In this document: one piece after another, positions 17,407 through 26,679 of the stretch
How positions within the stretch are numbered: position 1 is the stretch's first letter
Layout of the letters: each line of letters begins with the position of its first letter
Source of the DNA: Escherichia coli
GTDB taxonomy: Bacteria; Pseudomonadota; Gammaproteobacteria; Enterobacterales; Enterobacteriaceae
Strand: one strand, 5' to 3'
DNA: 64,000 nucleotides
Assembly: GCF_046105845.1 (NCBI RefSeq)
Contig: NZ_CP151004.1
Notes under the pieces: generated by a model
Told to the model about the DNA's origin: nothing
Seen by the model: only the letters and a program-made list of their open reading frames with translations
The model's database searches: none
Position numbers and translations under genes: made by a program

Positions 17407-17626
17407 TGCTATTGCAGGATGGCGTTCATGCGCCATCCTCTGCTAAAGCGAAATAATGCTACTTCCGGTTGTTCTATTCATTAACCGGTGCATCCTGTTA
17501 AAAAAGATGCCAACATATTTGCATAAAACTCATTCGTTAAGAAAGCTAACACTGGGCATTGTTATTCCTTAAACAGTATGAATTGGGTTCAATAATAAAT
17601 TGTATTGCAGTTTATACTGTAAAGTA

Positions 17627-18697
17627 TTATTCGCATTTCGGGAAAGTAAAGAAAATATTAATGTATCTTATTAATTTATTATATTGTTCTTGAGTGAATG
17701 CTATTTGCACACCTTCAGGATAATATTCACCAGTAATAACCAGTTGTCCATTGCTGTGTTGTACCATTAAACCTTTTTTTTCCTTTGGATCTTCAAACTT
17801 AGAATTATCAAACGTGAAGATGTTATTTTCCTGTTTTGAGTAAGCAAAGAAATCTCGTGTATAGCTGAAACTATCATTTATTAATGGTGCTAACTTTTTG
17901 TCGGCGATATCGATAAGCTCACCACTTAATTTATTGATGTATTTCATTTGGTTCAATTTTTTCTGCGCTTGTACAATTTGCTTGTAGGTATTTTTAATTT
18001 CCTTAGAAGAATTCTTGAATTTATCATAGCGTTCCACGGAGGATGCGTATTTGTACCATTCTGTATTTTTCTCAGAATGTAGTAGCAGGTCTGTATATTT
18101 TTTTTGATCGCTGTAAAGTTGACTTTTAATACTTTCCTCACTGCTGGTTTTATAAGGTTTATCAGAGCTGTTTATTTTTGAAATGTCTTTTTCTGTCGGT
18201 GACTGGACCGTGTTGTGGATATTTTCTTTTATAACATGTTCATTGATGATGTTAATTGCAGTTTCATATTCATTTAAGTTTATTGTTCTTTGTGAAATAA
18301 ACCCTTCTTTGCTTTCGACACTCAAAATACCTTCGTTGTTTTCACCTCGGGTAAAGGTAAGGGTATAGGGTTCATAATCCGCTGCAAATTCATTTTTATA
18401 CGTTATGACATGTTCGACAAAATGTCTTATTGGTACGAAACCATAACTGTGAACGTCAATTTTTTGGGTCTTGATACTATCAATTGCATCTGAGGCTTTC
18501 GTGAAAAAAGCCAATAAATTAGCTATGCTGTCTGCTGAAGTTGATAACCCGTATCTACTTTGAGATATTTTTAGAAACTCATCGCAAAAAAACTCAAGTT
18601 TCGCGGTTTGTTGTGATTCTTTGTAAATTTCTGCTGGTTGCAATTTATTATTTTGTAAAATATTACAGCGAGATAAGTGAATAGATGTATTTGGCAT
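17627..18697 (-). CDS. Hypothetical protein, 356 aa, AT-rich, no recognisable domain
   Basis: Long intact ORF; first ATG at 18697 preceded by AAGGAATCATTT (SD); the track ORF begins at an upstream TTG. Base composition by eye is roughly 30-35% G+C against about 50% in flanking genes. No signal peptide, TM helix or catalytic motif recognised. Confidence 0.6.
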   Translation of the reverse strand: MPNTSIHLSRCNILQNNKLQPAEIYKESQQTAKLEFFCDEFLKISQSRYGLSTSADSIANLLAFFTKASDAIDSIKTQKIDVHSYGFVPIRHFVEHVITYKNEFAADYEPYTLTFTRGENNEGILSVESKEGFISQRTINLNEYETAINIINEHVIKENIHNTVQSPTEKDISKINSSDKPYKTSSEESIKSQLYSDQKKYTDLLLHSEKNTEWYKYASSVERYDKFKNSSKEIKNTYKQIVQAQKKLNQMKYINKLSGELIDIADKKLAPLINDSFSYTRDFFAYSKQENNIFTFDNSKFEDPKEKKGLMVQHSNGQLVITGEYYPEGVQIAFTQEQYNKLIRYINIFFTFPKCE

Positions 18698-19162
18698 AAA
18701 TGATTCCTTGTATTGTGAGTTAACAAGATACAATCTAATCTTTGCAAAATATATTCACTATCAAATTTAGCTCATTTTATTACGAAGACCTTTACGCATG
18801 GTAGAAAGTATCATTATTGTTAATAAATACGGTAATAAGTAACAAACAGATATTGATAACTTCCCTGAAAAGTTACTAGGTATCCCACTTGAAGATTGAG
18901 AATGGCTCCAGAGTAAACTGTGTACTGTTCGCCGGAGTGTCATTACTCTCAACGATCGGTTTTGACAGTGAGTCGGGCGCTTCATACCGGTTTCTACCTG
19001 GAGTCATTGTCACTTCTCCCAACTGGATAAATATATATCGCCAATTCACAAAGTGGGCCAAAATCAGGTGAAAACGAATTATTACGCCTGGTAAAGGCTA
19101 TAGTACAACTAAGTGTGGCGAATCAGGCAGTCTTGCATTTGTCATCAATCTCATGTCTTACA

Positions 19163-20041
19163 TCAAATTTTTCCACTCACCACGAGTTGTTCCGTACACG
19201 TTTGTAGTAAAAACAGTGGACTGCCTTCTACCGGCTTTTCTTTAGCCAGCAACGAAATCTGTCGATAGAAGGTTGGTTCGAGAGGAACGGAACACAATTC
19301 ATCTGCAATGGTTTTCAGCGTTAACTCTGGTAATAAGGCGATGCCTAATCCCTGTCGAATAAAACTGATCGCTGTATCCGGGTGATTAAATTCATATTTT
19401 ATCTGTGGGGTAATATTCTTTTCTTTAAATAGTGCCATAATGCTTAATTCATAGCGTCCTTTACTAATAATTAATGGTTCACCCATTAACTCTTCCACTG
19501 TAATAGTGCTGTTTTTTGCCAGAGCATGGTTGGGCGGTAACACTACGGTGAATTTATCCTGATAAATGGGCACGGAGTACATTCCGCTCACCGGAAAATG
19601 AACAAAACCGGCATCAATGGATTCATTCTGAAGGGAATCAATAATCGCTGTGCTATTTTCCTCAAAAGGAATAATTTTTATATTCGGATGATGAATTTCA
19701 AAGTAGCGAATCACAGCCGGTAAGATACAGGCGCAGACGCTGGGGAAACAACCAAGTCTCAGCGTTCTTTGAGGGTTCTGCTTTTCCTGCTCGGCTATCT
19801 CTTTTACTGCGTTCACTTCCCGATTAATGGCGCGCAGATGATGCATAATGCGGTGACCTGCAGAGGTCAGTTGTATAGCTTTACGGCGATCGCGTAACAG
19901 TATATTCACGCCAAGTTCTTGTTCGAGGGCAGCAATTGCCTGACTTACCGCCGACTGCGTCATGAACAATCGCTTGCTGGCTTCAGTAAAGCCACCGTAA
20001 TCCAGCACGGCGAGTAAAGAATTTATTTGGGTAAGAGTCAT
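19163..20041 (-). CDS. LysR-family transcriptional regulator
   Basis: 292 aa; N-terminal HTH LTQINSLLAVLDYGGFTEASKRLFMTQSAVSQAIAALEQELG; divergent from the adjacent MFS gene. Confidence 0.85.
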   Translation of the reverse strand: MTLTQINSLLAVLDYGGFTEASKRLFMTQSAVSQAIAALEQELGVNILLRDRRKAIQLTSAGHRIMHHLRAINREVNAVKEIAEQEKQNPQRTLRLGCFPSVCACILPAVIRYFEIHHPNIKIIPFEENSTAIIDSLQNESIDAGFVHFPVSGMYSVPIYQDKFTVVLPPNHALAKNSTITVEELMGEPLIISKGRYELSIMALFKEKNITPQIKYEFNHPDTAISFIRQGLGIALLPELTLKTIADELCSVPLEPTFYRQISLLAKEKPVEGSPLFLLQTCTEQLVVSGKI

Positions 20042-20192
20042 TAGAGTTTGCTAATCAATAATATTAAAACGATTAATTTCTCTAATAGCATGCCGCCATT
20101 TATACTTCTGTTCTGCAAAGTACATCACAATTTGACGCAACCGCAGTAACGGGAGTGTTGTCTGCGTGCGTCATCCTGACAGGCGGTAGGGT

Positions 20193-21383
20193 ATGAAAGA
20201 GAAGTTATGGACGAAGGATTTTTGGGCAATAACCATCATCAGCTTTATTATTTTCTTCGTCTTTTATGTTTTACTAACATTGTTGCCAATTTATATCTCT
20301 GACCGCTTGCATGCCTCTCCTGATAAAGCCGGTTTATTGGTGACTTTATTTTTAATTGCCGCCATTGTTATTCGCCCATTTGCCGGGCAATGGGTGGGTA
20401 AATACTCGAATAAAACTATTCTGGTGCTCTCTTCTCTGGCCTTTTTATTGGTCACAGCGTTGTATCCTTTTTGCCACTCAATTGAATCACTGCTTTTTAT
20501 TCGGGTGCTTCATGGTATTACCTTCGGGGTTATCACTACGGTAAAAGGAACGATTTCCGCGCGGCTGATCCCGGCCTCCCGACGTGGGGAGGGCATCAGT
20601 TTTTTCTCTCTGGCAATGGGGCTGGCAATGGTGGTCGGGCCGTGGATTGGCCTGAATATGGCGCGCTGGGAGGCCTTTAATATGGCTTTCTGGTTATGCA
20701 CCGGCGTGGCAGCGGTGGGGATTATTCTGTCGCTGATTATGACAGTGCCGCCGGTTATCAGCCATGCTGATGGTTCAACGCCGAAAATGGGCTTCGCCGC
20801 CATGTTCGATCGCGCGGCGTTGCCATTTGCGATGGTCACCTTTTTTATGACCTTTTCGTATGCCGGGGTTTCTGCTTTTCTGGCGCTTTATGCACGCGAA
20901 CTTAACCTGATGTCGGCAGCCAGTAATTTCCTGCTTTGCTACGCTATCTTCCTGATGATTTGCCGTACCTTTACCGGCAATGTCTGCGACAAAAAAGGAC
21001 CGAAATATGTGGTTTACCCTTGCCTTGTGTTCTTTACGGTAGGACTGGTGGTTCTCGGCTACACCCAGGGAAGCATAATGATGGTTGTTTCTGGCGCATT
21101 GATTGGTATCGGGTATGGTTCCGTGACGCCAGTTTTTCAGACGCAGATTATCAGTTCAGTGGAACCGCATAAAATCGGTGTCGCAAACTCCCTCTTCTTC
21201 AATGCGATGGATGCAGGCCTGGCGCTGGGAGCCTTTGTGATGGGGATGATGGTTGCACATACTGGCTACCGAATGATTTATCTGCTGGGTGCACTATTAG
21301 TGGTGGTGGCTGGTGGAGTCTATGCGCTGCAAATGAAGGGTAAAAGCGGTGTCGCGCTAGTAGTGGCAAAAGAAATTCATTAA
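20193..21383 (+). CDS. MFS transporter (probable LysR-controlled efflux/uptake pump)
   Basis: 396 aa with about 12 hydrophobic segments; divergent from the LysR gene. Confidence 0.8.
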   Translation: MKEKLWTKDFWAITIISFIIFFVFYVLLTLLPIYISDRLHASPDKAGLLVTLFLIAAIVIRPFAGQWVGKYSNKTILVLSSLAFLLVTALYPFCHSIESLLFIRVLHGITFGVITTVKGTISARLIPASRRGEGISFFSLAMGLAMVVGPWIGLNMARWEAFNMAFWLCTGVAAVGIILSLIMTVPPVISHADGSTPKMGFAAMFDRAALPFAMVTFFMTFSYAGVSAFLALYARELNLMSAASNFLLCYAIFLMICRTFTGNVCDKKGPKYVVYPCLVFFTVGLVVLGYTQGSIMMVVSGALIGIGYGSVTPVFQTQIISSVEPHKIGVANSLFFNAMDAGLALGAFVMGMMVAHTGYRMIYLLGALLVVVAGGVYALQMKGKSGVALVVAKEIH

Positions 21384-25984: not shown

Positions 25985-26061
25985 GTATGTCGTACCTGTT
26001 TTTGGAATTCTTTCCGCAATAGTTTCGTGCAGACTACCTGTAGTACGGGAAGCTGCTTAGA

Positions 26062-26108
26062 ACACTATATATAGGGGGTATGTTTGGGATTCACTGCAAG
26101 ATAGTGTG
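26062..26108 (-). promoter_or_regulatory. Two NrdR boxes upstream of nrdA
   Basis: Minus strand reads CCCCCTATATATAGTGT (26062-26078) and CACACTATCTTGCAGTG (26092-26108), matching the NrdR box pair as I recall it. Confidence 0.6.
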
Positions 26109-26137
26109 AAAATGGCCCTCTTGCAAGTGCATAACTT

Positions 26138-26146
26138 TGTGGATAA
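26138..26146 (-). promoter_or_regulatory. DnaA box upstream of nrdA
   Basis: TGTGGATAA on the plus strand is a perfect TTATCCACA on the minus strand. Confidence 0.55.
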
Positions 26147-26679
26147 CTCAGGAAGGAAAAAGTGGCTTTCGCGCACCTTAGGTCAGACAAGGTGTCCGGG
26201 AAAGTCAATGGGAAGAGAAAAATTTGTTAAAAATAACTGTTCGGCGATTTCTTGAACGGAAGAATAGGTTAGATAAATTGATATAGATGGTTTATTAATC
26301 TTTTGGCTAATGATTGCAAAAATTGATCTAAGCACGAATCATCGCATAATCTGATGTATCAGTTCTGGTCAATATATAAGCGAATGTAAGCGATTGTTGA
26401 TATCGAAATGGTTGTTTTCTCTTCGGTTATTGTTAAATGCGAAGCCATTTTGTTAATTTACCTTATATTATAAGAAAATTATTCATTACTTTAATTCAGT
26501 TTAAATATAACTAATATCCCTTAAGGTGATTAACTTGAATTATGACGCACTGATATTATTCATGAAATAATAACAAAATAGCCATTGCACGGGGTTGAAC
26601 AATTTACAAAAGAAAAATAACCCATATCGTATAATGCGATTAAATATGCCGTCTTATAGAAAATGATGGTCAGATTAAT

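Follow-up and report, generated by a model that had tools for sequence, protein, structure and literature searches.

A probable old orphan gene of weak constraint on an AT-rich islet beside glpQ in Escherichia coli

We have analysed an open reading frame (ORF) at positions 17627 to 18697, on the minus strand, of a window of 64,000 nucleotides of the Escherichia coli chromosome (contig NZ_CP151004.1). The frame encodes a product of 356 residues that an initial annotation, made from the sequence alone, could place in no family. The best-supported reading, to which we give a probability of roughly 55%, is that this is an old, lineage-restricted orphan gene that is under weak constraint, dispensable in some conditions and in the course of being lost from many lineages, and that the AT-rich islet carrying it is foreign-looking. 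The islet would have been acquired once, in an ancient event, and inherited vertically thereafter.

An orphan restricted to Escherichia

Searches of very large sequence collections recover essentially the gene itself. When 5.8 billion protein clusters were searched through a word index, 23 matches came back, all of them from Escherichia with at least 82% identity and many of them truncated. HMMER, run exhaustively over 1.84 billion representatives, recovered only fragments of the ORF's own gene together with one weak match to another protein. All members of the ORF clusters are named "hypothetical" or "uncharacterised" in their sources. No significant match was found in Pfam (with the single sequence or with the family alignment), NCBIfam, PADLOC, PHROGs or PDB (by sequence or by profile), and the Pfam and PDB profiles reveal no catalytic motif, be it of the nuclease, NTPase, TIR or Sir2 kind or any other. 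The initial annotation had reported neither a family nor a recognisable domain and had proposed profile searches against Pfam and PDB as a check; both statements stand, and the profile searches match no characterised family.

When one genome from each bacterial species was scanned, the only representative from another species was a contaminant contig of E. coli origin. This 3,474 bp contig (JAIJJM010000334.1; L010 in our numbering) belongs to the species-representative metagenome-assembled genome (MAG) of a Collinsella sp. and matches the E. coli region of glpQ and the islet at 98-99% identity. Its sequence is almost certainly there through binning contamination.

The weak HMMER match (P0035; E=1.5e-4) is to a cadherin-repeat protein of 1001 residues, in which a motif of about 30 residues, D-x-E-x-x-LTF...G-x-x-S-x-x-SK-x-G-x-IS, at ORF residues 105-137 aligns with each repeat. 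We rejected it as a homologue, as the E-value sums five non-independent repeat matches, which are not significant singly (pairwise E of 0.001-0.05 in a two-sequence comparison). Pfam finds no cadherin domain in the ORF product even at E<=10, and the segment following the motif differs from cadherin-repeat proteins in being predicted as helical rather than beta. As judged from these searches, the ORF is an orphan confined to E. coli and the sister lineage closest to it, and neither a relative nor a known fold can be detected for it.

The reading frame and its product

The frame runs from an ATG at 18697 to a stop codon at 17627-17629, and the N-terminus of its 356-residue product reads MPNTSIHLSRCNILQNNKLQ. 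A Shine-Dalgarno (SD) sequence, AAGGAA, lies at 18704-18709 on the same minus strand with a spacer of 6 nt to the ATG, and the block of SD and start codon is unchanged in all eight alleles that were aligned. RefSeq uses the same start; an in-frame TTG upstream at 18733 gives rise to a 368-residue version with some gene callers. The stop-free run extends over 375 codons; when the 1.71 kb islet was shuffled 2,000 times, the run averaged 79 codons and never exceeded 186. The coordinates, length and start signal given by the initial annotation are all confirmed, and its view that the gene is probably real is strengthened by a frame longer than chance, which has stayed open across 65-83 substitutions and shows a deficit of non-synonymous change (see below). 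On these grounds the ORF is very probably a protein-coding gene.

The predicted product is hydrophilic (grand average of hydropathy -0.67), with a mass of 41.4 kDa and an isoelectric point of 6.5. It is rich in K (10.4%), S (9.6%), I (9.3%), E (8.4%), N (7.6%) and Y (5.9%), and no transmembrane helix is predicted, the most hydrophobic 19-mer scoring just 0.86; composition and hydrophobicity thus agree with what had been described from the sequence. The first 22 residues contain no D or E and are rich in S, T, N and I, a bias that is AT-driven and seen throughout the protein, the whole product being rich in S, N, I and K because the gene itself is AT-rich.

Distribution and age of the islet

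The 1.7 kb segment with the ORF is present (at 80% coverage or more) in 1,045 of 5,426 complete E. coli genomes, or about 19%. It is always chromosomal, in single copy and at one fixed site, with glpQ on one side and the LysR and inaA genes on the other, and the ORF is annotated as a hypothetical protein. The junctions of the islet are identical in TW10509, a cryptic clade I strain (PMC7716201), and in two other divergent lineages (L006 and L007). Between the window and the divergent lineages the synonymous divergence (dS) of the ORF is 0.10-0.11 and that of glpQ in the same genomes is 0.16-0.18. Because these values are comparable, the islet appears to have diverged along with its flanks rather than to have been transferred recently, and the comparison indicates that it is old and vertically inherited.

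Decay of the gene in some lineages

Fourteen alleles (that of the window and 13 sampled, a non-random set) were translated directly. Eight are intact, namely those of the window, 1190, O157, L006, L007, the contaminant MAG contig, PK8261 and ETEC1747, and six are disrupted by four kinds of lesion. The initial annotation had named interruption in close relatives as a reason to doubt the gene, and this is seen in part, the frame being broken in these six alleles and whole in the eight others.

The first kind of lesion is a +T frameshift in a T6 tract near codon 63 (18504-18509, minus strand), which is seen in 6EVA, TW10509 and STEC388, three different allele backgrounds, and is joined in 6EVA by an extra +A. 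The allele of 2018-05-2CC has a nonsense codon at position 169. In SCEC020001 an IS1A element is inserted with a 9-bp target duplication, TAATTTATT (L011 2026-2035 and ~2803-2811), and GDSC2227PM has an IS1-associated deletion. Sampling the match list at even spacing gave 34 rows that bear the islet; 7 of these, about one fifth, show the two-piece pattern of splitting by IS1 and possibly represent one successful clone. We also considered designed phase variation and rejected it, homopolymer runs of at least 7 not being enriched over the codon-shuffled expectation (p=0.28).

Such decay favours the main rival to our reading, that the ORF is purely a relic: once functional, or derived from foreign DNA, it would now be inert in most or all lineages, with too little time having passed for its erasure. 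The four independent kinds of lesion in six of 14 alleles and the absence of the islet from about 80% of complete genomes both count on its side. Against it, the SD and start codon are invariant, and lineages that have diverged at a glpQ dS of about 0.17 still carry an intact gene.

The O157 allele and an annotation artefact

The allele of O157:H7 likewise has glpQ and the LysR gene as its neighbours, also encodes 356 residues and is 97.5% identical in DNA to the window ORF. It is short of one A in an A8 tract near codon 198 (18098-18105, minus strand; ORF nt 593) and has gained an A 34 nt downstream (nt 627), which restores the C-terminal frame. Residues ~200-208 are recoded as a result, from YTDLLLHSE in the window to IQTCYYILI in O157. 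The frame of the window allele is taken as ancestral because it is common to the most divergent lineages. That O157 fixed a second, frame-restoring change suggests that the C-terminal half of the product matters, and it is a further point against a relic.

The NCBI Prokaryotic Genome Annotation Pipeline (PGAP) labels the ORF as a "frameshifted" pseudogene in 1190, PK8261 and ETEC1747, all of which have uninterrupted frames of 356 codons (L001 6228-7298, L012 1728-2798 and L015 1726-2796, corresponding to window 17627-18697); the copy in 1190 is 100% identical to the window ORF. The probable source of the artefact is the use of the O157 protein WP_001301786.1, with its shifted segment, as the PGAP reference. 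Truly disrupted alleles are labelled in the same way, so that the flag carries no information here. Because the intact, ancestral-frame allele is systematically mislabelled, pseudogene and pan-genome counts for this locus are in error.

Selection and recombination

The ratio of non-synonymous to synonymous divergence (dN/dS) in pairwise comparisons is 0.54-0.66 for the ORF and 0.04-0.05 for glpQ in the same strains. By region it is about 0.4 in the N-terminal block and rises to 0.7-0.9 in the central third, and values this high would suit a relic. When the eight intact alleles are pooled, 32 synonymous and 79 non-synonymous segregating changes are counted, giving a polymorphism ratio (pN/pS) of 0.58 (binomial p=0.008) compared with 0.06 for glpQ (p=4e-26). 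Random re-placement of the 65 or 83 observed substitutions leaves the frame open in 2.1% or 1.2% of simulations, respectively. Both the deficit of non-synonymous polymorphism and the persistence of the frame, which 1-2% of neutral simulations match, speak against an inert ORF, and they indicate purifying selection that is real but weak. Taking the lesions, the patchy presence and the high dN/dS together with these signs of constraint, we regard a relic as unlikely, although it is the strongest of the alternatives to a weakly constrained gene.

Divergence is concentrated in a hot-spot at 18112-18211 (minus strand; residues ~163-195), inside the predicted disordered linker. Two main allele types are present, and the hot-spot has 71-74% identity to alleles of the clade I type, compared with 91-100% for the neighbouring sequence. 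Because dS (about 0.25) and dN (about 0.19) are both raised here, the pattern suggests an older or imported allelic segment and not simply positive selection. Recombination within the gene is also evident in the comparison of L007 with the window, with 99-100% identity over the 3' third of the ORF and 91-96% over the 5' part.

The islet and its chromosomal setting

The gene order in the window is glpC-glpB-glpA / glpT-glpQ / ORF / LysR regulator / major facilitator superfamily (MFS) transporter / inaA / yfaE-nrdB-nrdA, and the ORF is thus flanked by housekeeping genes on an E. coli chromosome. The LysR gene (19163-20041, minus strand) lies 465 nt upstream of the ORF on the same strand, with its stop at 19163, and the gene beyond it occupies 20193-21383 on the plus strand.

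The ORF is located in an AT-rich islet of 1,711 bp (17440-19150, not assigned to a strand) that is polymorphic for presence and absence and is precisely missing from strain EE72d; its limits, which are approximate, were placed by aligning the EE72d empty site to the window. In EE72d the end of the LysR gene comes straight after the terminator hairpin of glpQ (17416-17439, plus strand), such that the convergent glpQ and LysR genes of empty-site strains use one common hairpin. The left junction of the islet falls immediately after this hairpin and the right junction 12 nt past the LysR stop codon. Terminal inverted or direct repeats, a target-site duplication, an insertion sequence, an integrase, a tRNA and an Rfam family were all looked for at the islet ends and none was found. 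Searches with tblastn revealed no source in phages or plasmids, the sole plasmid match being to a chromosome of 4.9 Mb. This PLSDB record (NZ_CP141089.1; 4.94 Mb) is evidently an E. coli chromosome mis-filed as a plasmid.

The GC content falls to 0.34-0.37 in the islet from about 0.50-0.55 on either side, in keeping with the AT-rich region first described. Since the islet is 65% AT and has 4.1 H-NS-like motifs per kb compared with 1.25 per kb in the window, it may be silenced by H-NS. The upstream non-coding part of the islet (18698-19150, minus strand) is well conserved, with a mean column identity of 98%. Between the stop of the LysR gene (19163) and the start of the ORF (18697), the ORF strand shows no consensus sigma-70 promoter, which counts in favour of a relic, as does the finding of neither literature nor expression evidence for the ORF. 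No terminator-like site is predicted in the same interval, and read-through from the LysR gene into the ORF is therefore possible.

A short ORF of 43 codons is present upstream (18876-19007, minus strand), with a good SD (GGGAGAAG) and a stop 178 nt before the ATG of the main ORF; gene callers list it in L006, L008 and L009. Two synonymous and six non-synonymous changes are counted in it, and frameshift variants exist. With no coding constraint apparent, we rejected it as a partner gene or leader peptide, and it is probably non-coding. Three proteins (P0081-P0083) might be taken for divergent homologues of it, but they represent this same E. coli locus with frameshifts, in some cases from error-prone assemblies. 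We note that a patch of about 100 bp around this short ORF (18911-19010) is about 50% GC and 98-99% conserved.

The LysR-MFS segment varies independently of the ORF segment: of the four ways in which the two can be present or absent, three were observed. Both are present in the window and in O157, and EE72d has LysR-MFS without the ORF. TW10509, L006, L007, STEC388 and ETEC1747 have the ORF together with a deletion of 1,867 bp in LysR-MFS (window 19410-21276), which occurred across a 13-bp overlap and leaves only 3' stubs of the LysR and MFS genes, the homologues of those in O-island 97. This recurrent deletion had its endpoints mapped in L006, L007 and L008; in L011, L014 and L015 the annotated LysR and MFS stubs fit it. 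We take K-12 to have the double-absent arrangement, with neither the ORF nor LysR-MFS, and the remnant of the LysR-MFS deletion is presumably the K-12 yfaH pseudogene.

Two further GC troughs (0.38-0.39) are seen elsewhere in the window. That at 26001-27000 is just upstream of an ORF of 1,252 codons (26680-30438), and that at 57001-58000 is upstream of an ORF at 58005-59132.

Predicted structure

AlphaFold2 models are of low confidence, with a mean predicted local distance difference test (pLDDT) score of 42.3 and a predicted template modelling (pTM) score of 0.24 for the full-length protein (alignment of 11 sequences), and a mean pLDDT of 42.0 for residues 1-162 (nine sequences). As the family alignment is too shallow, its members being at least 82% identical, the models are unusable as folds. 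The predicted layout of secondary structure nevertheless agrees between these two low-confidence runs. Helices are predicted at residues ~21-102, followed by a three-stranded meander (111-140) and a helix (141-158), a disordered stretch (159-184), a long helix of about 75 residues (185-260) with a further helix at 270-285, and a beta-rich C-terminal module (287-333) with a capping helix (336-349). Because the architecture is one of coiled coil and linker and has no catalytic motif, the product may bind other molecules instead of acting as a catalyst.

Foldseek comparison of the full model with PDB gave no match at E<=0.001 and a query TM-score of 0.17 at most, and was disregarded. Matches at E~0.3 to alpha-beta-beta-beta-alpha folds resembling SRP9/14 and the double-stranded RNA-binding domain (dsRBD) were taken as noise from a low-confidence model. 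An internal duplication of two modules, each a beta-meander and a helix, was also considered and is unsupported by BLASTP (E=14).

Secretion substrate or defence protein

The initial annotation had described the N-terminus as compatible with a secreted effector. In that case the product would be a substrate of type III secretion, an effector of the enterocyte effacement locus (LEE) or of E. coli type III secretion system 2 (ETT2) that acts in host cells, and its variable linker would reflect host-driven diversification. We consider this improbable. The N-terminus is merely compatible: its composition largely mirrors that of the whole AT-biased protein, and a run of 22 residues without D or E has, by our own arithmetic, a chance of about 4% per position-fixed window. 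The Pfam, NCBIfam, PDB, cluster and HMMER searches show no resemblance to an effector family, no chaperone gene is adjacent, and the gene is chromosomal and not phage-borne. Intact copies are present in O157:H7 and also in ETEC1747, PK8261 (chicken) and 1190 (canine), an enterotoxigenic, an avian and a canine isolate that are apparently of non-LEE pathotypes, as judged by strain name alone. In the linker hot-spot dS is raised like dN, which points to imported divergence rather than positive selection. Finally, the published phenotype of a deletion of z3495, the LysR-type regulator gene, is restored by plasmid-borne z3495 alone. Nothing specific supports an effector.

The other suggestion made at the outset was a defence or toxin function. 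The ORF would then encode a one-gene defence against phages, an abortive-infection protein or a toxin, retained as a variable accessory gene. Such a role would suit the variable presence, AT-rich foreign-looking DNA, frequent inactivation and lack of an assignable family, but is very improbable, several features looked for having proved absent: there are no PADLOC families at E<=1, no PHROGs matches, no catalytic motif of the kinds sought in Pfam and PDB profiles, no partner or antitoxin gene (the sole nearby small ORF, that of 43 codons, lacking coding constraint), and the site is a fixed one among housekeeping genes rather than a defence island or mobile element.

Significance and comparison with known systems

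An old orphan gene under weak constraint would make this ORF one of many uncharacterised lineage-specific accessory genes of E. coli, and the biological stakes are modest. It is nonetheless a clean test case for how long an orphan gene can persist under weak selection, with 356 residues, no relative among about 15 billion sequences and a frame open since before the split from clade I.

The islet adjoins a known virulence regulator, the LysR-type z3495. In enterohaemorrhagic E. coli (EHEC) O157:H7 this gene is part of O-island 97, a segment of 2,006 bp that contains only z3494 (an MFS transporter) and z3495, and the phenotype of the z3495 deletion was restored by plasmid complementation without mention of the ORF (PMC10819331). 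O-island 97 is the immediately adjacent variable segment and, like the ORF islet, is missing from some E. coli. The ORF lies outside its 2,006 bp, however, and the islet forms an indel apart from it, with different junctions and independent variation.

With the Nle and Esp non-LEE effectors of EHEC and enteropathogenic E. coli (EPEC) the ORF has in common a low GC content, restriction to a lineage, a non-acidic polar N-terminus and coiled-coil content. It differs from them in showing no sequence or profile similarity and in not being located on a prophage or at an exchangeable effector locus.

The ORF also resembles the AT-rich, H-NS-silenced ORFans of enterobacterial genomes in that it has a GC content of about 35% in a genome of about 51%, is confined to a lineage, weakly constrained and patchy in distribution, and lacks a consensus promoter. 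Among lineage-restricted orphan genes the ORF is an ordinary one, and it differs from many ORFans in being long, at 356 residues, and in having remained open across the divergence of E. coli and clade I.
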